Origin: a virus
Lineage: Duplodnaviria > Heunggongvirae > Uroviricota > Caudoviricetes
Direction: 5' to 3' (one strand)
Virus record (IMG/VR): IMGVR_UViG_3300036760_000193
Location: 27,395 to 91,394 of that record
DNA length: 64,000 nt
The notes under the pieces are model-generated. The model searched no databases. It was given only the letters and a program-made list of their open reading frames with translations, and was not told the origin of the DNA. This document shows positions 3,458 through 64,000 of the stretch, one piece after another. Both the position numbers and the translations under genes were made by a program. Positions within the stretch are counted from its first letter, which is position 1; each line of letters begins with the position of its first letter.

Positions 3458-3816
3458 TATTTTCTCCTTTTTCCCGCTTCAATCCCGCTCTTAAACTGCT
3501 CCGTCAATAATGTTTGCAGATTAGAAATAGTTGCGTCAGTAAACTTCGATACATCGAAATGATACGATAAAAAATTAACAGCCAATAAACGGGCTGTCAA
3601 TGCTGGTTGAGAACGTCGTTTCATTACACGCAAAATTCCTTCTTCATAATTACTAATGTACTTGATACCTTCTGTGGGGCGTATTTTTTTCAGACGACGC
3701 TGTTCTTTACGATCTTCTACAAGATACATCGCAAGAGGTACAGTTTTCAAAAGTCTAGAAAGCTCTTTATATTTCGCCCGTGCTGTTCTTGCATACTTCC
3801 TATTTGCTTCGCTCAT
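3457..3816 (-). CDS. hypothetical basic protein (119 aa)
   Basis: Minus ORF, K/R-rich. Confidence 0.45.
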   Translation of the reverse strand: MSEANRKYARTARAKYKELSRLLKTVPLAMYLVEDRKEQRRLKKIRPTEGIKYISNYEEGILRVMKRRSQPALTARLLAVNFLSYHFDVSKFTDATISNLQTLLTEQFKSGIEAGKRRK

Positions 3817-27162: not shown

Positions 27163-27564
27163 TTATTTTGGCTCAGGTATGTCCAAACAAGTTAGGTCAA
27201 CTTGATAAAGCAAATTGTACCTGCGAATCATAATCATGCTGGCACTTCCATGACCCGGGTTATGTGAAGCACACACTGTTCCTATCGCGGCACCTGTACC
27301 ATCCAAGAACTCAACAGCCAACAACCGTGCGTTATATGGCGTCCCGTCTGGTGCAGTGCCTTTGATCTCTGGCTCTACTATCGCTTTGACTGGCAACCCA
27401 GGAAGGTCTATCCGAACTGATACGCTTGACACTTCGACACCTGGAGCAATTGCCGTGGCGTTCTTATCATTGTTCTTCGTTACATAAACTTGCCACATCA
27501 CTTCTGCACTGGCCGTACTGCACAAAAGCCCTATGTTTAGTAACAAATATAGGTATGTTTTCAT
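27163..27564 (-). CDS. putative secreted protein or lipoprotein (133 aa)
   Basis: Signal peptide MKTYLYLLLNIGLLCSTASA with a possible lipobox GLLC. Confidence 0.5.
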   Translation of the reverse strand: MKTYLYLLLNIGLLCSTASAEVMWQVYVTKNNDKNATAIAPGVEVSSVSVRIDLPGLPVKAIVEPEIKGTAPDGTPYNARLLAVEFLDGTGAAIGTVCASHNPGHGSASMIMIRRYNLLYQVDLTCLDIPEPK

Positions 27565-53402: not shown

Positions 53403-53938
53403 TTTCCAGATGATCCGAAACCACCTTGGCCTCGGTCACTGTCTGACAATTTATCGCTCTCCACCAATGTCACTTGCGGTGTTGGTAGGATGAGTGCCTG
53501 ACAAAATTTGCTCCCCGCTTCTATAATGAAGTCTTCATACCCATTGTTATAGGCTATGACCAATACTTCATTCCTATATCCTGAATCTATAATCCCAAGA
53601 TGATTTTTAACCTGAACTTTAGCATACGATGATCGCGTATGTACTTGCATGTGCCAACCCGTAGGAATTTCAAATGCCAATCCAGTGCGAACCATGCGCC
53701 ATTGCCCTGCTGGAATGTAAGTTCGTTCTAAGGCGTACAGGTCTATCCCAGCGTCGTCACTGTATGCTTTAGTAGGAATCATTGCTTTGGGGTCTAACTT
53801 TTTGAAGTGCAAAGTTAAGTTGTTCCGTTGATACACTTTACCCATGAATCCATCTATATCTCCCATGATGAGAGACAGAAACCATAGTTTTAATTTCCAC
53901 ATATTCTTACCTAGCGACCAGTTCTTTCTTAAATTCAT
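53399..53938 (-). CDS. dut: dUTP pyrophosphatase (dUTPase)
   Basis: dUTPase motifs AGIDL, GIIDSGYRNE and C-terminal RGQGGFGSSG. Confidence 0.75.
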   Translation of the reverse strand: MNLRKNWSLGKNMWKLKLWFLSLIMGDIDGFMGKVYQRNNLTLHFKKLDPKAMIPTKAYSDDAGIDLYALERTYIPAGQWRMVRTGLAFEIPTGWHMQVHTRSSYAKVQVKNHLGIIDSGYRNEVLVIAYNNGYEDFIIEAGSKFCQALILPTPQVTLVESDKLSDSDRGQGGFGSSGK

Positions 53939-56624
53939 ATGTCTTAGCCTCTCCCCAATTCTTTCCGACTTTGAATTCGGCTCTCATGGGGACATTCACG
54001 CCAGCGATTGGGCGTTCCATTTCTTCCTTCATCGTGTCTATACCACGTTGAAAATCTTCTACATCCACTTCACAATAGATAGCATCATGAACTAAGATGA
54101 GCACTTGTCCTTTGATCCCCTTGGTTTTGAAAGCTAGTCTCATTCTATTAGCGGCGTTACATGTCATATCCGATGCTGCGGCTTGAATAGGGCTGTTCAT
54201 CGCTAACCGTTCATGTTCTTCTCGAACAAACTGCACTGGACTATCAATCCCAGGTAGTCTACGTACTCTACCAAAAATGTCTCTGATCTGTTTGTATTGC
54301 TTCACGGTTATAATAGCCATGTCTAGCCATTGCTTAGCAATAGGATATCGTGCAAGAAATTGGTTGATGATCTCTTGTGCTTTCGTAACTGGAAAGGGCT
54401 TCCCCGTATCCTGACTGATCTGATCTGCAATGCTCTCAGCCTGTCTTCCATACATAATACCAAACACAATACGCTTAGCGGCCTCTCTCATTTCTTTTGT
54501 CACTTGGTCTATAGTGACACCCCAGGCTATAGAAGCAGTCTTTTTGTGGATGTCAGGGCCTGATCCATCATCAGCGGCTACGATGTCTCGAATCATATCT
54601 GGGTCTTGGGAGTAATTCGCCCAATGTCTGAACTCTGCTTGCCCATAGTCCGACTCAATCCAAACTTTCCCAGGTCTTGGAATGAACAAACTCTTGATTT
54701 TGATTTCCGTACCATCTGATAGAATAACAGGAGACCGTGGTATGTTCTGTAAATTGGGGTCACTGCTTGATAGACGGCCTGTCACTGTCCCATGAATCAA
54801 GAAGCTAGAATGCAAAGCATAATTCGCATCTACTCTCTTCTCTAAGCCTTCCACATACTTGCTTAATACACCTACGACCTCTCGGTATTCCAATACCATC
54901 TTGGGGATTGGATGCAAAGGGGCTAAACTCTTAAGAACTTCCTCATCTACAGCTGGCTTCTGGCTCTTTGCTGTTAGCTTATTGACGGGTAACTTCAATT
55001 TATCAAAGAAGATACCAGCCAATTGATCGTTTGAACTAAAATTGAACTCGTCATCCACGTCTGTTAAATTAGACTCCGCACACTTCTTACGAAGTTCTAT
55101 CTCTCGTTTAGAAATCTCTTCAAGTAGTTTGCTCTTGAATTGCTCCAACCGATCTTTGTCTAACATAACACCAGTCAATTCTGCTTCTGTCAATGTCTCA
55201 TTCAACGGCATAACCAACTTACCCATCAATGACTGTAGATTCTCTTCTTCTATTCTAGGCTTAAACAACTCATACAGTCTGAATGTCACATCCGCATCCA
55301 TACCAGCATAAGGATATAAGACTTCTGGGGGTACATGCGCGTAGTTGCGTGACTTCTTTGATCCGCTGGTATTTTCGTCAAACCATTTTTCAAGAGGATC
55401 ATTGTATCCACCCATGTCTGTGTAGTTTTGAGCGCACTCTTTCAAATCGTGCATACCTTCTGCGTTCTCATTCAGAAGGTGGTGAGCAAGCATAGTGTCA
55501 AACCAGAATTTGTTCACCATGATGTTCATGTACTTAAATAAAAATTTGTTATCGAACTTCCCATTATGAGCTATCTTGATAGCATCATTGGCGAATGTCT
55601 TTCTCAACTTCTCTAAAATGTAATCCTTCTTGTCTCCCCACCAATCAAAATACTCATCAATCACTATGGTACTCTTCTTAGGAATCTCTTTGACTCCTGT
55701 CTCTACCCATTGCCCATTCACTTTCTTTTTGGTTTTACGCTTAACCATCTCGATATGTTCTTCTGGCCGTCCATTGTATCTAGTGATTGGCAATATGCAA
55801 GCTGTACCACTCTGCCAACTGAATGAAATACAAAGAACTTTTCCAGTCATGAAGTTAAGACTGTTGGTTTCTATATCATAAGAGAAGGCGGGTACAGTAT
55901 TAAGGCGGGTTATAAGTTGATCGAACTTCTCTGGGGTGTCTACAATCACATACTTTCCAAGTTGTCTTGGTGTAAGCTCTTTATACTCAGAAGATTTCTT
56001 GATACGTCTCAAATCTTCAATGGTAAATCCCTCAAATTCAGGAGAGCGGCGAAGCGTCATTGGATGATAAATAGGAATCACTTTGCAATTATATTTCTCA
56101 CTCCAGACTTCGGCTCCACGGGTTCCCTTAATAGTAGAGACCTTGCCAAATATACGTTTCACAGCAATGGTTCCCATAGGGACAATGATAGTAGGTTGGA
56201 TCGCCGCTATCTCTTTATCTAGATAATCGGCACAAGCTTCGATTTCGTCTTTTTTAGGTTCGCGGATTCTTTCAGGTGGGGGTGCTTTAGGGTAGCATCT
56301 TACTACTGTAGTCAAGAAGACCTCTTGAGCGGAAATTCCCGCTTTCCATAGAAGTCTCTTTACTTCTTTGCCGATTGGGCCACCCCATACATCACCAGAT
56401 TCATCTTCTGGGGAACCAGGCCACTCACCGATAAGCATTATTTTGGCGGTGAGTGATCCCTTGCCGTTTACTACTTTTTTACGACCTTGGCACAATCCGC
56501 ATTTTTGACATGCGCTATTTTGTAGGTCTAACATTGCGTTTCTTTGCTTTAACTCTTCTTGGTTGCCTTTTCGATTGTTTTGGATACACAAGTTTCCCAT
56601 TAGCATCTGGGAATGTGAACTCAA
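53907..56624 (-). CDS. family A DNA polymerase with an N-terminal family-4 UDG-like domain (SPO1 type, 905 aa)
   Basis: N-terminal GEWPGSPEDESGDVWGGPIGK (UDG family 4); 3'-5' exo motifs; PolA motif B RIVFGIMYG and motif C VHDAI. Confidence 0.8.
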   Translation of the reverse strand: MSSHSQMLMGNLCIQNNRKGNQEELKQRNAMLDLQNSACQKCGLCQGRKKVVNGKGSLTAKIMLIGEWPGSPEDESGDVWGGPIGKEVKRLLWKAGISAQEVFLTTVVRCYPKAPPPERIREPKKDEIEACADYLDKEIAAIQPTIIVPMGTIAVKRIFGKVSTIKGTRGAEVWSEKYNCKVIPIYHPMTLRRSPEFEGFTIEDLRRIKKSSEYKELTPRQLGKYVIVDTPEKFDQLITRLNTVPAFSYDIETNSLNFMTGKVLCISFSWQSGTACILPITRYNGRPEEHIEMVKRKTKKKVNGQWVETGVKEIPKKSTIVIDEYFDWWGDKKDYILEKLRKTFANDAIKIAHNGKFDNKFLFKYMNIMVNKFWFDTMLAHHLLNENAEGMHDLKECAQNYTDMGGYNDPLEKWFDENTSGSKKSRNYAHVPPEVLYPYAGMDADVTFRLYELFKPRIEEENLQSLMGKLVMPLNETLTEAELTGVMLDKDRLEQFKSKLLEEISKREIELRKKCAESNLTDVDDEFNFSSNDQLAGIFFDKLKLPVNKLTAKSQKPAVDEEVLKSLAPLHPIPKMVLEYREVVGVLSKYVEGLEKRVDANYALHSSFLIHGTVTGRLSSSDPNLQNIPRSPVILSDGTEIKIKSLFIPRPGKVWIESDYGQAEFRHWANYSQDPDMIRDIVAADDGSGPDIHKKTASIAWGVTIDQVTKEMREAAKRIVFGIMYGRQAESIADQISQDTGKPFPVTKAQEIINQFLARYPIAKQWLDMAIITVKQYKQIRDIFGRVRRLPGIDSPVQFVREEHERLAMNSPIQAAASDMTCNAANRMRLAFKTKGIKGQVLILVHDAIYCEVDVEDFQRGIDTMKEEMERPIAGVNVPMRAEFKVGKNWGEAKTYEFKKELVAR

Positions 56625-57039: not shown

Positions 57040-57407
57040 TCTTTGTTCAACTTTTTGTTCAGTAATTCAATGGAATAGTCAATTACGAAGCTGATTGCAT
57101 ACTTCTTCACTTTCTTTTCCAAGAAATCAGGAACCCAAGGAATGTCAAAGTCCAGTAATCGTGATAGAACGTCCACTGATATCTCTTTCTTCTCTTCTCC
57201 CGTCAATCCTCCGAACAAGTTGTCCTTGCCAAGTTTCTCAACCTCTGTCAAAACCAAATCAATTGAAGTGAGAATTGCTCTTACATCTTTAACATCGAAT
57301 CCATCACCACGATCTACAAGTTTAACTTGTGAACTCGTCGATTGAATTGTGTTATATATCTCTTCCGCTATCTTCTTTGTGTCAACACTCATTTTATTGC
57401 CTCCCAT
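57027..57407 (-). CDS. hypothetical protein (126 aa)
   Basis: Minus ORF. Confidence 0.4.
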
Positions 57408-57991
57408 TTATTATTTTTTACTATATTCTCTTTTGGAGTTAAATATTGTAAATTCCAAACTACATGTAAACCCGAAACTAATTTTCCATTCAAAGGTATT
57501 ATATGGTCAACTTGATAACCTTTAGGACAATTCCTATAAAATTCGTTAATTCCTTCCTTACCAAATTCTATTTTTCCGCGCACCCGACGTTTTGCTTCAT
57601 TTTGGTTTCTAATGAATTGATTTTTTCTATCCCAATTTCTATGATGTTTAGCTCGTTTCTCTGGATACTTAGAAATCCACATTTTATTTAATTCTTTACA
57701 TCGTTCAAGATGTAATTGACGCCATTCTTTACTGAGAATCTTAGATTTTTCTCTATTGTTACATCGCCAATGGCTACTTGTTCTATTGACTTTTTCTTTA
57801 TTTCTATTACGCCAAGACTTATTCCAAGTTCGTTGACATTCTGAACAATGCCCTTGATTATCACTACCCACTTCACGTTTATCGTGCCCATGTATACAAA
57901 AATTACTTTTTTTCATTATCTTTGTTATTTTTTTTATCAGACTCATCTTTTTTAGATTTGCCAAAAAGCTTCTTGAAAAAGTTCTCAACAA
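57389..57991 (-). CDS. HNH homing endonuclease (200 aa)
   Basis: C..H...C..C Zn motif; C-terminal [12 protein letters not shown]...[10 protein letters not shown]; very AT-rich locus. Confidence 0.65.
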
Positions 57992-59104: not shown

Positions 59105-59570
59105 ACATTTCCTCCTTGCGTGAGTCTAGGCAGTCTTTAAGTTCTGGCTCCAACTCAAAAAGTCTCTCAAAAGTTTTTATACTAACACAGGTCAATTTAT
59201 CTACAGGCGACGGCAATTCCACGATACAATCCGTCACGTCAAACTGCGCTTCTAGGTCTGTTGTATAATGATCTATCGAAGCGCGGGGCATTTCAACCAA
59301 ATCATCTGGCTTTTTAAGCTCTGATTGTTTGTAAAGCCAAAATCCAGAGACTTCTGTATGTTCAGGATGCTCCATGACCATTTCTGGGGCGTCTGTTTCA
59401 ACAATATATTTGCAGTATGATCCAATAATCAAAAATGGGTTTACTGAACCAATAGAATTCAGATTACGAATCACGAACGGCTTGTCCTGATCTTTGTCGA
59501 TACCTGGGATATCAAAGTCTTTGCTGTTGTCTATGAGATAAAGGGCTATCTCTTTTGTAATCCTATACAC
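59091..59570 (-). CDS. hypothetical protein (159 aa)
   Basis: Minus ORF. Confidence 0.4.
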   Translation of the reverse strand: MYRITKEIALYLIDNSKDFDIPGIDKDQDKPFVIRNLNSIGSVNPFLIIGSYCKYIVETDAPEMVMEHPEHTEVSGFWLYKQSELKKPDDLVEMPRASIDHYTTDLEAQFDVTDCIVELPSPVDKLTCVSIKTFERLFELEPELKDCLDSRKEEMYGGL

Positions 59571-59571
59571 G

Positions 59572-59832
59572 TTATTTCCTCCTATACTTAAAGTAAAGTG
59601 CGAAGTAAAAAACTAAAAATGTCATTCCTATGCCGTGGCTAAACACTATCGGCCAAGCTTGAATAGATATGCTGTAAATCAATCCGCATGTATAAGCTGC
59701 GAACAAGAAGAACAAGTACCCTGCGCTGATGTCGTCTACCTTCTTTGTCTTAACTATTTTTACAATCTGAGGTACATAGCTCACATTGAAACAAATCGTT
59801 GTTAACCAACCAAGCAGAGTATAGAATGTCAT
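59572..59832 (-). CDS. PQ-loop / SemiSWEET-like 3-TM membrane protein (86 aa)
   Basis: Three hydrophobic helices; conserved PQ (NVSYVPQIVKIVKTKK). Confidence 0.45.
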   Translation of the reverse strand: MTFYTLLGWLTTICFNVSYVPQIVKIVKTKKVDDISAGYLFFLFAAYTCGLIYSISIQAWPIVFSHGIGMTFLVFYFALYFKYRRK

Positions 59833-60371
59833 CGTCTGCGCTTCTTTGCTTTGGGAGTTAATAGCAACTCTATCAGTTGTATAGCACGATCTTTAATCAG
59901 AGGTGGACGTGTCTTCGTTTTGTATTTTGATAGCATTTTCTTGGTTATCTGGATGTCTACAGTTGTCTTACGTATTGCGTTTTCTATTGCGTCCAATTCT
60001 AAATTGTATTTAATCGTATTGCGCTTCAATCGTTCTTTTGCTGTCTTCTTATCATGGCAGGGATCACAAATTCGCTGCAAGTTCTTCTTCTCACAAAACA
60101 GACGATCATGAAATATATTCCAGTCTTTGAATCCTTTTTCTTCGTCAATGACTGGGATCATGTGATCTACTTCCATGAACTTCCTCATCACCCAATTCCC
60201 GCAAACCTGACAATTAAACTGTACTTCATCTACTTTGTGTCTGCTACCATCTTTCTTATATCTGGGTACAGCCCGCCTTCCTTCGTTAAGAACCTCTATG
60301 ACAATAGGAGACCTAGCAAATATTCTTCTCCAAGCTCCACGACAAGCGGCATTCTCATTCCATGTTCGCAC
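59829..60371 (-). CDS. HNH homing endonuclease (180 aa)
   Basis: CQVCGN...EVDHMIPV...ICDPCHDKKT motif. Confidence 0.65.
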   Translation of the reverse strand: MRTWNENAACRGAWRRIFARSPIVIEVLNEGRRAVPRYKKDGSRHKVDEVQFNCQVCGNWVMRKFMEVDHMIPVIDEEKGFKDWNIFHDRLFCEKKNLQRICDPCHDKKTAKERLKRNTIKYNLELDAIENAIRKTTVDIQITKKMLSKYKTKTRPPLIKDRAIQLIELLLTPKAKKRRR

Positions 60372-60567
60372 GACGTTTGATTACCCCTTTCGAGTGTCTG
60401 ATAATTCTGTCTCCTAGACGCTCTCCACCAAAGCCATTTTCCTCTGCGGAACAACCACATGCGGGACATAGAACATATCCAACGGGTTTTGCCTTCGCTT
60501 TAACTTCAAACTCTGCAAAAAAATGACGACAATGTAATTGTGTACACAAATATAGATACAAGTTCAT
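60355..60567 (-). CDS. hypothetical zinc-ribbon protein (70 aa)
   Basis: CPACGC motif. Confidence 0.3.
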   Translation of the reverse strand: MNLYLYLCTQLHCRHFFAEFEVKAKAKPVGYVLCPACGCSAEENGFGGERLGDRIIRHSKGVIKRRANME

Positions 60568-61199
60568 GATGGTCTCTCTTCGGCTTTTGACAAGTCCCCC
60601 GTCTTAGATACTTCAAAAATACGATGTGCTTTGCCAGCAATGACAGGACTATGAGTAATCAGAATCGTCTGCAACGTAAGCTTCTCTGACACTTGCCGAA
60701 CGAACTCACCTAATGGTTCTTGATCTGATACACTGACAAACTTAAAATTCTCATCAAGAATCATGATCCTAGAAAGCACTGGCTCCCACTTTAATAGCAG
60801 AGCAATCTTCAAGGGGTATGTCACAATATCGGCAATACTGCCGCCACACGAATCCAATATGTCGTATTCCCGCTGCGTGGCTTTGTCGAATACTACAAAT
60901 TTCACATCCACCTGGTTACGTTCCGTGGACAGAAGCATACGAAACTCAAGGTTTGGGTCTTTGACCTTCTGAAGTGCATCGGTAACAATGTTGCTTATAC
61001 GATCAATTATCTGCTGCCGTGTCGTATCTGAAAGGGTTTGTAAGAATACCGATGCTTTACCCAGCGTATCTGTGTCCCGATCAATGGCTCCTAGCCTGTC
61101 ATTGGATTGCGACAGTTTCCGCGACAAAGTGTCGCGTCTGCCAAGCTTGACATAAAGCGCGTTATTCAACTGTTGGTACTCTATTTTAAGATCAATCAT
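60564..61199 (-). CDS. sbcC: SbcC/Rad50-like ABC ATPase, C-terminal half (211 aa)
   Basis: N-terminal coiled coil, then signature-like DSCGGSIADIV, Walker B RIMILDE and H-loop ILITHSP. Confidence 0.6.
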   Translation of the reverse strand: MIDLKIEYQQLNNALYVKLGRRDTLSRKLSQSNDRLGAIDRDTDTLGKASVFLQTLSDTTRQQIIDRISNIVTDALQKVKDPNLEFRMLLSTERNQVDVKFVVFDKATQREYDILDSCGGSIADIVTYPLKIALLLKWEPVLSRIMILDENFKFVSVSDQEPLGEFVRQVSEKLTLQTILITHSPVIAGKAHRIFEVSKTGDLSKAEERPS

Positions 61200-61214
61200 A
61201 TTTATTTTAATGTT

Positions 61215-61583
61215 TTAATGTTCCAAATACCATCTTACTGCTGCCATAAATACGGGGTTTTCTATTACCCCAAGACGAACATTACATTGGGTGCATAACA
61301 AACCTCTGACTCTATTAGTATTATGGTCATGATCTACTGATAATTTTTTACGTTTTCTACAGATAGCACAACGATAATTCTGTTTTCTGCGTAATCTGTC
61401 AAATTCTCCTTCTTGCATACCATAAATTCTTTTATAATGCCAATCTCTATGAAATATTTTATCGTGAGATAACCCATGAACAAAATTCGGATTCTTCTTC
61501 CCTTTTCTGTCTCTTAAAATAGAAAGAAGCTTATCCCCATTATTACGCATTTTAATTGGTAATTTTCTACGATCTAAAAGCAT
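61215..61583 (-). CDS. HNH homing endonuclease (122 aa)
   Basis: CAICRKRKKLSVDHDHNTNRVRGLLCTQCN motif. Confidence 0.7.
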   Translation of the reverse strand: MLLDRRKLPIKMRNNGDKLLSILRDRKGKKNPNFVHGLSHDKIFHRDWHYKRIYGMQEGEFDRLRRKQNYRCAICRKRKKLSVDHDHNTNRVRGLLCTQCNVRLGVIENPVFMAAVRWYLEH

Positions 61584-61815
61584 TGAACTGCTCCAGCTGC
61601 GCTTTGATGTCTTTGACCTCTTTAGAAAGCTCTTCTTCCTGCTGCTGAATAGCGGCCTCGATGCCCTTGGGGTCTACTCCTAACGCTTTGCACTCTTCCA
61701 AAAGCTGCGCTTTCTCGCTCTCTAGAGTCTGTAACCGTGTAGCAGTCTCAATCTTACGCACTTGGATACTCTCAAGCTCTCGTTTCAATCTTAGAATATC
61801 GTCATCAATACTCAC
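61567..61815 (-). CDS. coiled-coil protein, probably the descending coiled-coil segment of split SbcC/Rad50 (82 aa)
   Basis: Heptad-rich E/K/Q sequence; position between sbcD and the HNH gene. Confidence 0.4.
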   Translation of the reverse strand: MSIDDDILRLKRELESIQVRKIETATRLQTLESEKAQLLEECKALGVDPKGIEAAIQQQEEELSKEVKDIKAQLEQFNAFRS

Positions 61816-62744
61816 TTAAGCACCTCTTTCGCTTCTCGAAGTTTTGTCAAAATCAGTTCTAAAATTTCCCCGCCTACATCTTGCGCTTTCCCGACCGTTC
61901 GTACTACTTGTTCAATGTCGATGTCCTGAAACGATGTCTCTTCAAGGCTTCTAGCAAACTGTTCAATGTTTCGTTCCTGCTGTTTCAATATCTCTACAGC
62001 ATCCACATCAAAAATTTCATGTCCTGGCCGCGAAGATGTCAATTTCCTATAAGCTACATTTAACTTCCCCTTGTTGACGGTAATAAAAAGCACTTGAGGA
62101 GTATGATCTCTTTCAGTAATCTTCCAACGGCTGACCGCCCCAGGATTGATCCATCTTGTTTTACCATTGGTGTAATCAAATGCTACATGGTAATGACCAC
62201 ACAACACTAGGTCTGCATTGGTCTTGATATCTTTGGGATGAACAAATCCCCACGGCATACTGTCCGTTGGTATGACATAATTATGGGAGAGAATGATTTT
62301 TATATGATCGTCATATTTGCTGTCAAACATGTAATCTTTATTGAAGTCAAGGGATGAGTGAACTGCCTTTACCACCACCTTCTCTTTATCTTGCCACACC
62401 ATGTTCTCCAACCGCTCCACCGCACCTGACTCAAATAACACTCCCAGGCCACTGTTAATCACACTATCCAAATTGTACCCTGTGATGTCATGGTTCCCGA
62501 TCACTCCCACTATAGGCTTACTCAACATCTTGCACCAGTCAAGGATATGAACCACCAACCTATGGGACGGCTTCTTTGTATTGAAAAAGTCCCCACCATG
62601 TAGAATCACATCTATATCTTCTTCATTACAAATATGCAGAACCTCTCCAAGCTCATCAAACTGCGCCTTCATGATGTCATCCGTCCGACCTTTCGGCTTG
62701 TCATCGCGGTAATGCGTATCTGTTAGGAACAAAAACTTAAGCAT
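61812..62744 (-). CDS. sbcD: SbcD/Mre11-like nuclease (calcineurin-like phosphoesterase, 310 aa)
   Basis: Motifs DTH, GGDFF, GNHD, GHYH. Confidence 0.75.
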   Translation of the reverse strand: MLKFLFLTDTHYRDDKPKGRTDDIMKAQFDELGEVLHICNEEDIDVILHGGDFFNTKKPSHRLVVHILDWCKMLSKPIVGVIGNHDITGYNLDSVINSGLGVLFESGAVERLENMVWQDKEKVVVKAVHSSLDFNKDYMFDSKYDDHIKIILSHNYVIPTDSMPWGFVHPKDIKTNADLVLCGHYHVAFDYTNGKTRWINPGAVSRWKITERDHTPQVLFITVNKGKLNVAYRKLTSSRPGHEIFDVDAVEILKQQERNIEQFARSLEETSFQDIDIEQVVRTVGKAQDVGGEILELILTKLREAKEVLK

Positions 62745-63747
62745 TAAGATTCTCCAAAATCTGTTGGCATGTGTGATCGTCTATTGAACCAAAACATGTC
62801 GGACACTTCTGATTCTTTTGAAGTATAGCTACATACTTCTCTTTTGACAATCGTTCTGTGGTAGTAGTGTCTTCCAATAATGTTTTTGTGGATTTGTACA
62901 CAGTCGAAAATCGTTGCACTCGGTCGAAAAGTGCCCTTATTTTCTTAAGAGAGTCGAATTTCTCAATAAGGTTGTCTGTGTTCGTGACCGTTATGCTTTG
63001 AAGTTCTGCATGAAGCTGCTTGATAACGGTATAATCCTGCTTCCAGGAAGAAACTCGCCCAAACAACTCTTTCAACTTCTCCAATCTTTCTTGTGCTTGC
63101 GATAAGCTCTCGATACGCTGCCCAATCTTTTCCAACTGAATCTTTTCTGCATCCAAATGATCGAACTGTACAAGCTCAACACCAAGGTCTAACACTTCTT
63201 TTTCTAGGACTGTCTTCTCACCACTTAGCCGTTTCTTATCCCTGTTGATCTCTCTTAGAGCGTAGTCCAAATAATGCGCCTTTGATAGCTTGCCAAGAAC
63301 TTTAGCCTTATATGCCCCAGGGTTTGACAATAGAAATAGGTTGTCCAATTGGCTTGATAAGTTCAAGTTGATCTCTTCTTTGTCACCTACCTGCGCCTTA
63401 AAAATATGCAGAAGCTTCTCAATCTCTTCTGGCACATGCGTACCAAAATTGGAATAAATCTGCTCTGGTAGCTCTGGCACCCGCACAACGTACCGATTGA
63501 CCTTTTCCCCCTTCTCTCGAATCACCACGGTCTGGTTGTCCATGACCAAGGCGATACGACAAAAAGCGGCTCCGTTCCGAACCCAACTTGACTCCCATTG
63601 TCCGAAAAGGATAAAAGAAAGGGCACGAACGATTGCGCTCTTCCCGCTGTTACCTGTTCCTACAATGCAGTTGAAGTTAGGATGGAAGTCTAAGACGGTC
63701 TCTTTATGAGACTGAAAGTTCTCAATCCTTAACTGCTTTATCCACAT
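62737..63747 (-). CDS. sbcC: SbcC/Rad50-like ATPase, N-terminal half with coiled coil and CxxC zinc hook (336 aa)
   Basis: Walker A GTGNSGKSAI; long coiled coil; CPTC hook 20 aa before the stop. Confidence 0.65.
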   Translation of the reverse strand: MWIKQLRIENFQSHKETVLDFHPNFNCIVGTGNSGKSAIVRALSFILFGQWESSWVRNGAAFCRIALVMDNQTVVIREKGEKVNRYVVRVPELPEQIYSNFGTHVPEEIEKLLHIFKAQVGDKEEINLNLSSQLDNLFLLSNPGAYKAKVLGKLSKAHYLDYALREINRDKKRLSGEKTVLEKEVLDLGVELVQFDHLDAEKIQLEKIGQRIESLSQAQERLEKLKELFGRVSSWKQDYTVIKQLHAELQSITVTNTDNLIEKFDSLKKIRALFDRVQRFSTVYKSTKTLLEDTTTTERLSKEKYVAILQKNQKCPTCFGSIDDHTCQQILENLNA

Positions 63748-63749
63748 TA

Positions 63750-63956
63750 TTATTTTCTTACGGCGTCAAATACTTCTTTTGTTTTTTCGTAATTGAGTCC
63801 GAAATCAGCCAAGATTTCTTGGAAGGTTTGAACGTCATGTTTCCGCAACTGATACTTTTTCTTCTCGTCATCGTATCGGACGCGCAACAGCTGTTCATAC
63901 ACTAACAATGACCGTTGGTACTCATCTGATCCTTCCCAATTTCCTTTCCACACCAC
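63750..63956 (-). CDS. hypothetical protein (68 aa)
   Basis: Minus ORF. Confidence 0.35.
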   Translation of the reverse strand: MVWKGNWEGSDEYQRSLLVYEQLLRVRYDDEKKKYQLRKHDVQTFQEILADFGLNYEKTKEVFDAVRK

Positions 63957-64000
63957 AAGAACAAGCTTGCGATTGGTGAAGGCCGCTAAGAGACCGCTAA

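Follow-up and report, generated by a model that had tools for sequence, protein, structure and literature searches.

In an uncultured phage, the homologue of the coiled-coil ATPase Rad50/SbcC is encoded as three separate proteins that stand beside an Mre11/SbcD nuclease gene. The window analyzed is a stretch of 64,000 nucleotides (nt) of IMG/VR record IMGVR_UViG_3300036760_000193 (positions 27,395 to 91,394), and all coordinates refer to it. We conclude that the locus probably encodes a working Mre11-Rad50 (SbcCD-type) recombination nuclease whose Rad50 consists of three polypeptides, that this composition is normal for a large and old family, and that an endonuclease gene was inserted later among the pieces. 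The window itself holds one ordinary member of the split-Rad50 variant, plus a neat endonuclease insertion. Five open reading frames (ORFs) and their motifs, all on the minus strand, were confirmed (Table 1); we call the Rad50 pieces N336, cc82 (for its predicted coiled coil), and C211 after their lengths in amino acids (aa). A description of a natural split Rad50/SbcC was not found in the open-access full-text literature, and databases label the pieces "exonuclease," "hypothetical protein," or "ATPase / chromosome segregation ATPase / RecN."

Table 1. Features of the split Rad50 locus, with positions in the window
Feature	Position	Strand	Description
N336, Rad50/SbcC N piece	62737..63747	minus	336 aa; ATPase lobe I, ascending coiled coil, CPTC zinc hook, 18-aa tail
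Walker A GTGNSGKS, N336 residues 30-37	63637..63660	minus	G30, G35, and K36 invariant in 68 family members
CPTC zinc-hook motif, N336 residues 315-318	62794..62805	minus	Followed by 18 residues, then stop
sbcD, Mre11/SbcD nuclease	61812..62744	minus	310 aa; Pfam Metallophos E = 1e-14; five phosphoesterase motifs
cc82	61567..61815	minus	82 aa, GTG start; helix-turn(LGVDPK)-helix; proposed hook-proximal descending coil
Endonuclease VII-family (His-Me finger) ORF	61215..61583	minus	122 aa; PF02945 E = 1e-17; PHROG endonuclease VII families
Inserted low-GC segment, cc82 stop to new C-piece start	61200..61566		GC 0.327; single gap in three relatives
Former C-gene ribosome-binding site GGAG (61591-61594) and start codon (61581-61583)	61581..61594	minus	Now serving the endonuclease ORF
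C211, Rad50/SbcC C piece	60564..61199	minus	211 aa; ~60 aa descending coil plus ATPase lobe II
C211 signature-like SCGGS	60837-60851	minus	In lobe II
C211 Walker B IMILDE	60750-60767	minus	In lobe II

Similarity of the pieces to Rad50 and Mre11

Profiles of both ATPase pieces were closest to Rad50 when weighed against SMC, RecN, RecF, and defence ATPases. Among solved structures, the N-piece profile (E = 1e-15) best matched Methanocaldococcus jannaschii Rad50 (5F3W and 3AUX), followed by that of Pyrococcus furiosus, and the C-piece profile returned the Rad50 C-lobes of the same structures in the same order (E = 1e-8). N336 carries Walker A in an N-terminal lobe and matched the Pfam families SMC_N, AAA_23, and AAA_15 (E = 5e-11 to 5e-14); its AlphaFold2 model (predicted local distance difference test score, pLDDT, of 86.6) has a fold that matches Rad50/SMC head N-lobes. 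C211 matched no Pfam family; it matched the 211-position profile of PHROG 15167 "ATPase" (E = 1.5e-26). The signature, Walker B, and H-loop (ITHSP) all lie in this C-terminal lobe, the signature in the variant form S-C-G-G-S, and SCGGS, IMILDE, and THS fall opposite LSGGE, DE, and H in the alignment with M. jannaschii Rad50 5F3W. Residues S117, G119, G120, D149, E150, and H183 are invariant across the C family. All NCBIfam matches fell far under the curated cut-offs, the best being Rad50 for N336 and, weakly, RecN for C211.

The end of the first chain was compared with known hooks by a profile of 65 positions, comprising the 45 residues before CPxC and the tail. Its top solved structure was 1L8D, the P. 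furiosus Rad50 zinc hook (E = 1.4e-6), with the CPxC of the window's family aligned with the CPVC of that structure, and a second hook structure, 6ZFF, was its third-best match (E = 1.3e-5). By this homology the CxxC of N336 is a predicted zinc-binding hook flanked by coiled coil. Because CPTC is a homologue of a true hook, the first chain would end ~15 to 18 residues into what would be the descending helix. A first-pass annotation, made from the letters of the DNA alone, had placed the ORF end 20 aa after CPTC; the ORF does end shortly past the motif, and the count is 18.

The 310-aa sbcD product contains all five Mre11 phosphoesterase motifs (DTH9, GGDFF50, GNHD83, SHNY153, and GHYH183), and all of its solved-structure matches were Mre11/SbcD. 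Its adjacency and motifs mark it as the putative cognate partner of the split Rad50. The remaining piece, cc82, belonged to no family found in Pfam or PHROGs. Taken over every sequence feature examined, the locus reads as an Mre11-Rad50/SbcCD complex in all respects save a single-chain Rad50, which is replaced by three ORFs here and in all relatives. The first-pass annotation was therefore right to see an SbcC/Rad50 homologue in three ORFs, a genuine zinc hook near the end of the first, and an Mre11/SbcD gene together with a mobile-looking endonuclease gene lying amid the pieces.

We also considered whether the module could instead be another SMC-like or ABC-ATPase system, serving defence or counter-defence in the manner of Lamassu (LmuB), PARIS (AriA), Gabija (GajA), or Septu (PtuA). 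PADLOC matched N336 to AriA and LmuB models at E = 1e-14 and gave many GajA and PtuA matches. However, most of these matches span only the first ~50 to 70 residues, around Walker A, and fall short of full length, and PADLOC returned no match for C211 and no partner genes. Rad50 is the closest match for both halves and for the hook, the adjacent phosphoesterase is of the Mre11 type and has all five motifs, and the locus lies in a phage replication module or, in a bacterium, beside recA. A defence system is thus very unlikely.

Conservation of the three-piece architecture

The first-pass annotation had allowed that the three ORFs might be a sequencing or assembly frameshift, or the remains of a pseudogenized, once-intact sbcC. 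Apart from the a priori oddity of three ORFs, nothing speaks for this. An independent Logan assembly (SRR11714420) matches the window at 3,661/3,661 nt, insert included. Of the complete relatives, L012 is the closest: it shares 76% of amino acids with the window in N, 80% in sbcD, 84% in cc, and 85% in C, and the ratio of nonsynonymous to synonymous substitution (dN/dS) between the two was 0.064 for N, 0.074 for cc, and 0.049 for C, with synonymous sites near saturation. All three Rad50 pieces are under strong purifying selection. Adjacent genes in the window overlap by 8 nt (N/sbcD), 4 nt (sbcD/cc), and 17 nt (cc/endonuclease ORF), and start/stop overlaps between genes are conserved in the relatives. 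Given these values, the identical second assembly, and the recurrence of the same architecture in about 20 loci and thousands of protein clusters, the chance that the split is an artefact or a decayed gene is close to nil.

The pieces are free-standing wherever they were detected at scale. In a large protein collection, all C211 homologues (52/52) were free-standing proteins of 193 to 222 aa, and all N336 homologues (71/71) measured 306 to 482 aa. When 68 N pieces were aligned, C315, P316, and C318 were invariant and every sequence stopped 5 to 25 residues past CPxC. An exhaustive search with the C-family profile returned 4,903 clusters (50% identity) at E <= 1e-3 and 3,170 at E <= 1e-10; among the best 150, 143 were free-standing and 190 to 236 aa long. 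Locus annotation with the family profiles recovered the series N, cc, C, each piece with its own ORF, in about 20 independent contigs from metagenomes and IMG/VR, including nine IMG/VR viral contigs and one contig binned to a Thermodesulfobacteriota metagenome-assembled genome (MAG). Among the detected relatives, no phage had one uninterrupted sbcC.

Three Bacillus phages have the same pieces: vB_BboS-125 (N, gp32, 471 aa; ~80-aa protein, gp34, 78 aa; C, gp35, 211 aa), phBC6A51 (BC1852, 518 aa; BC1854, 77 aa; BC1855, 211 aa), and 0305phi8-36 (gp8, 769 aa, in which Mre11 is fused to N; gp7, 92 aa; gp5, 236 aa). All three phages have a CxxC just before the end of the first piece. A cellular copy with the order sbcD322-N482-cc83-C218 lies between cinA-recA and rny on an 89-kb contig of the Bacillota MAG GCA_051744365.1 (L016), indicating that the split family is not limited to phages.

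Gene order is also conserved. The cc gene is directly upstream of the C piece in nearly all related loci, with one unrelated gene between them in 0305phi8-36, and the cc profile of the window's clade matched the profile of the ~80-aa Bacillus-phage proteins (probability, 97%; E = 7e-11), with which it has a G-V/Y-x-P turn in common. We take the ~80-aa protein to be a real member of the family. In the window's clade the order N-sbcD-cc-C is fixed and all close relatives have sbcD at the same position, so that sbcD is not the insert it had been thought to be; in other clades it is found upstream, downstream, or fused to the N piece. The split thus appears from these comparisons to be the old, widespread, and normal state of a large family.

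No match was obtained when the locus was compared by megablast with 50,697 phage records or when viral contigs were scanned with the single protein C211; a profile-based scan then yielded nine loci, and a genome scan yielded one. Microbacterium phage Magritte (L013 and L014) has an unlinked, hook-less variant: its C piece is gp2 ("exonuclease") at the left genome end, and a related N piece without a CxxC is gp155 ("hypothetical protein"), ~93 kb from gp2. Magritte is too distant to inform the window's case.

A recently inserted endonuclease gene at the cc/C junction

The endonuclease gene between cc82 and C211 is a recent insertion. It is absent from the cc/C junction of five relatives (L004, L005, L007, L009, and L012), in which cc overlaps C directly by 11 to 29 nt (the L009 C piece is 84% identical to that of the window). 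In the nucleotide alignment the insert is a single block opposite one gap in all three relatives aligned, and its GC content is 0.327, compared to 0.43 to 0.47 in the flanking genes. Alignment with L009 and L004 shows that the C gene originally began at the ATG at 61583, now the first codon of the 122-aa ORF, with the GGAG eight bases before it as its ribosome-binding site (start region, ATGCTTTTAGATCG in the window versus ATGCTGTACGAGCT in L009). C211 starts at a new ATG, its first ~10 codons are a diverged copy (MIDLKIEYQQLN versus MLYELKALHQRLN), and it has no recognizable Shine-Dalgarno sequence. The first ~9 codons of the 122-aa ORF are derived from the old 5′ end of the C gene, and the true endonuclease start may be the ATG at 61550. 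Such a pattern would be left by a low-GC Endonuclease VII-family gene that entered precisely at the cc82/C overlap, kept the 3′ end of cc82, took over the GGAG and ATG of the C gene, and supplied C211 with a new, diverged copy of its opening codons. The junction is a base-level example of how an endonuclease gene enters an overlapping pair, duplicates the overlap, and seizes the downstream translation signals.

The first-pass annotation had labeled the 122-aa product HNH. The superfamily (His-Me finger) was correct, but the match is to Endonuclease_7 (PF02945) rather than to HNH (PF01844). With a nuclease domain of the right superfamily (PF02945, a family that also holds resolvases), presence/absence polymorphism, and foreign composition (GC 0.327 versus ~0.44), the insert is most likely a free-standing homing endonuclease gene. 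In L015, a distant locus, the same cc/C junction is occupied by an Endonuclease VII gene with 38% identity and a GC content of 0.31. We considered whether the 122-aa protein might instead be a useful junction resolvase recruited to a recombination operon, given that PF02945 includes T4 endonuclease VII, that 1,534 phage records have relatives so annotated, and that the L015 homologue occupies the same junction. This appears rather doubtful, since the gene comes and goes among close relatives, has a strongly deviant GC content (0.33 in the window and 0.31 in L015), captured the start signals of its neighbor, and is accompanied in the window by another low-GC His-Me endonuclease island. That island (57389-57991, minus strand) has a GC content of 0.307, versus 0.426 for the window, and its product is a His-Me/Endonuclease VII-like protein of 200 aa (PHROG 1035); in L012, L004, and L005 the genes that flank it (55 to 60 aa and 114 to 126 aa) are adjacent, so it too looks like a recent endonuclease insertion.

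An endonuclease among the pieces invites the explanation that invasion by a homing endonuclease created the split, either in this phage, the reading favored in the first-pass annotation, or in an ancestor of the family, the pieces then becoming fixed. Besides the Endonuclease VII genes of the window and L015, other genes or remnants of endonuclease type recur at or beside the junctions: L015 also has an HNH-like 58-aa remnant after its N piece, an AP2-domain protein lies between N and cc in vB_BboS-125 (gp33; L001 3084-3656), and HNH paralogues gp9/gp10 (L002 5443-6001) lie upstream of the Mre11-N fusion gp8 of 0305phi8-36. For this phage, however, the explanation is excluded: the resident gene was inserted between two genes that were already separate and overlapped in different frames, and so did not split Rad50, and relatives with 76 to 85% identity are split alike without it. 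For the ancestor, the junctions also hold unrelated small genes and so may be merely permissive sites. Overall we consider an origin of the split by endonuclease invasion improbable.

Two other routes to a split gene were examined and rejected. No family was found by an Rfam scan of 59500-64000 at E <= 1 beyond one chance match, and Pfam found no intein domain in the pieces; with neither intron RNA nor intein, and with the cc and C genes of relatives overlapping in different frames, an intron or intein origin was rejected. A programmed frameshift joining cc to C was likewise rejected, as the two are 367 nt apart in the window.

In a clade with N pieces of ~373 aa (L015, L019, and L021-L027, from IMG/VR and MAG contigs), a YAcAr-domain gene (117 to 124 aa) and many paralogous small Cys/His-rich ORFs (45 to 106 aa, ending in a conserved ...DNL(E/K)(Y/F)LE..Y motif) lie at the junctions between N, sbcD, cc, and C. 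The Cys/His-rich ORFs look like a proliferating small-gene family, and none is present in the window.

Proposed assembly of the three chains

The gene structure, the homology of the pieces, their conservation and purifying selection, and the polymorphic insertion with its boundaries are established directly; from them we infer an assembly of the following kind. N336 would provide ATPase lobe I, the ascending strand, and the zinc hook, and would stop 18 residues into the descending strand. The rest of that strand would be supplied in trans, first by cc82 and then by the first ~60 residues of C211, whose lobe II (signature, Walker B, and H-loop) would dock on lobe I to form the ATPase head. Mre11/SbcD would bind the base of the coil, and two such assemblies would be linked through one Zn2+ held between two CPTC motifs, giving a presumed nuclease. 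The overlaps of the four genes (4 to 17 nt) suggest translational coupling and matched amounts of the pieces. Reference Rad50 catalytic domains are two-chain constructs, which gives a precedent for assembly of the head in trans.

Several comparisons bear on the order of the chains. In the window's clade the ascending strand (N336 residues 157-312) measures ~156 aa, and the putative descending strand measures 18 + 82 + ~60, or ~160 aa, where the ~60 aa of C211 are the residues before the part aligned with the 148-aa C chain of the Rad50 catalytic domain. A 5.6-kb contig (L028; JGI 3300054712) encodes sbcD, a cc-like ORF of 89 aa, and a 659-aa protein in which C is fused ahead of N and which ends in CPIC; the fusion has the layout expected of a circularly permuted Rad50 opened at the hook, supporting the order hook, cc, C. 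The N-terminal extensions of two C-family proteins of ~280 aa, P0195 and P0180, matched a broad cc profile (E = 8e-6 and 2.5e-4, respectively). These were the only extensions that the broader profile supported, and in profile-profile comparison with cc, the extensions of four longer C proteins scored weakly (probability, 22 to 30%). An extra Cys or His past the hook was examined as a fourth zinc ligand and rejected, as it is not conserved and L007 has none.

Some observations weigh against this arrangement or parts of it. Family members differ in the length of the N piece (311 to 518 aa), whereas that of cc (77 to 109 aa) and C (209 to 236 aa) is constant, so that a simple one-to-one antiparallel coil fails for those with a long N piece unless the surplus loops out, as it could at the joint where both strands are interrupted. 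AlphaFold2 monomer helix lengths, in N336 and in a natural C+N fusion (P0270), fit a hairpin that folds back on itself. Without a Shine-Dalgarno sequence, expression of C211 in this phage is only presumed, and because PF02945 also contains Holliday-junction resolvases, homing by the inserted gene is likewise a presumption.

The fold-back observation raises an alternative topology, in which the distal coil of N is itself a hairpin, CPxC lies ~38 residues above the head, and cc82 is an accessory or adaptor subunit that might pack on the hairpin or bridge protomers instead of extending the descending strand. In the N336 model, a helix of 55 aa (197-251) faces one of 56 aa (257-312) across a 5-residue loop, with a kink at 194-197; in the P0270 model, 95 aa (440-534) face 96 aa (546-641) and a kink again lies 38 aa above the head (pLDDT in this model was < 50 over residues 87-236, the C lobe). 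A proline/glycine cluster at the predicted midpoint of N members of 333 to 341 aa, together with the variation of N by about 200 aa at constant cc and C, would also suit a hairpin, and the proline/glycine positions in the N coil fit both topologies. On the other hand, the homology of the CPxC region with the canonical apical hook of Rad50 extends over 60 columns, strand lengths balance in the window's clade (156 versus ~160 aa), and the helix breaks of N336 (252-256) and cc82 (45-50, LGVDPK) lie at similar distances from the hook. A hairpin would moreover leave cc82 and most of the ~60-aa N-terminal helix of C211 partnerless, and monomer predictions made without a partner tend to fold an amphipathic helix back. 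We therefore regard the hairpin topology as unlikely, and an apical hook with the descending strand completed in trans is preferred.

The break at the hook may be functional and not neutral, permitting opening of a coiled-coil "ring" or strand exchange at the hook. Alternatively, CPxC could be a C-terminal zinc clasp near the head and not an apical hook. A broader proposal, that the loci make up an undescribed and very large Mre11-Rad50 family, with the window as its type example, whose Rad50 chain always breaks at the zinc hook and which needs the ~80-aa helix-turn-helix protein as an obligatory fourth subunit, is put forward tentatively, as a possibility that we hold to be somewhat below even.

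Comparison with known systems

Like the canonical Mre11-Rad50/SbcCD complexes (Escherichia coli SbcCD, T4 gp46/gp47, and archaeal Rad50), the window's system has Walker A, a Q-loop, a signature-like motif, Walker B, and an H-loop, along with a long coiled coil, a CPxC hook, and an adjacent five-motif Mre11 nuclease. It departs from them in its signature (SCGGS instead of LSGGE/Q) and in its chain: canonical Rad50 is one polypeptide with its strands joined at the hook, whereas the window's first chain ends 18 residues past the hook and two more proteins follow. The summed length of the pieces (336 + 82 + 211 = 629 aa) is close to that of T4 gp46, which is about 560 aa. In the catalytic-domain constructs 1F2T, 1II8, 3QKR, and 1US8, lobes on separate chains form an active head; for 1F2T, 1II8, and 3QKR, the N profile picks out the A chains and the C profile the B chains. 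Those constructs are engineered truncations without coil or hook, whereas the window has a natural, full-length version in three chains.

Phage genes parted by free-standing homing endonucleases are known, as in Aeromonas phage Aeh1, where nrdA is split by mobE, and in the T4 topoisomerase genes 39/60. The window resembles these cases in having a His-Me endonuclease between cistrons of one enzyme, polymorphic presence, and deviant GC, but here the endonuclease entered a pre-existing, conserved split and did not create it. Split inteins with a homing endonuclease gene in between mark the "fractured genes" of Dassa et al. 2009 (PMC2677866), whose fragments are likewise parted by an endonuclease ORF. 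In contrast to them, the break points in the window have no inteins, only the 18 aa past the hook, the 82-aa coil, and a start of MIDLK..., and relatives without the endonuclease gene are still split.

Fusions of Mre11 and Rad50 have been surveyed by Yoshida, Claverie and Ogata 2011 (PMC3175470), who reported that one P-loop NTPase segment "was not observed" in Bacillus phage 0305phi8-36. We find that segment to be the separately encoded gp5, with the cc-like gp7 in between; the published survey had thus taken the missing half as absent, a point of consequence for annotation. In gp8 of this phage and in a further locus (L010), Mre11 is fused to the same kind of N piece, whereas Mre11 in the window is unfused.

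How the coil and hook signal to the ATPase-nuclease head of Rad50 is still debated. A natural Rad50 that ends at its hook would mean that thousands of lineages can do without a chain covalently continuous through the hook, and if the break is functional or the motif is a clasp, the family would amount to a natural experiment on the need for a continuous coil and hook. The split pieces are small and separately expressible, making them suited to dissecting coil and hook function.

Neighboring genes in the window

The locus lies in a phage replication module with a family A DNA polymerase and an RNA ligase. Downstream of C211, a 180-aa HNH protein (59829-60371, minus strand; PF01844; PHROG 1985; GC 0.40) keeps its position in most close relatives (182 to 191 aa, with a faint HNH match in precomputed Pfam data); by its kept position and near-normal GC, this gene looks resident and not like a recent invader. 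Between it and C211 is a 70-aa ORF (60355-60567, minus strand) with a weak zinc-ribbon match, which has counterparts at the same spot in L004 (76 aa) and L012 (61 aa) and none in L005, L007, or L009. The polymerase (905 aa; 53907-56624, minus strand) has an N-terminal uracil-DNA-glycosylase domain according to the Pfam annotation of its homologues in relatives, and shares only ~30% identity with its counterparts in cultured phages (SPO1-like and YungSlug). The phage belongs to an uncultured lineage of ~190 kb that has no close cultured relative.

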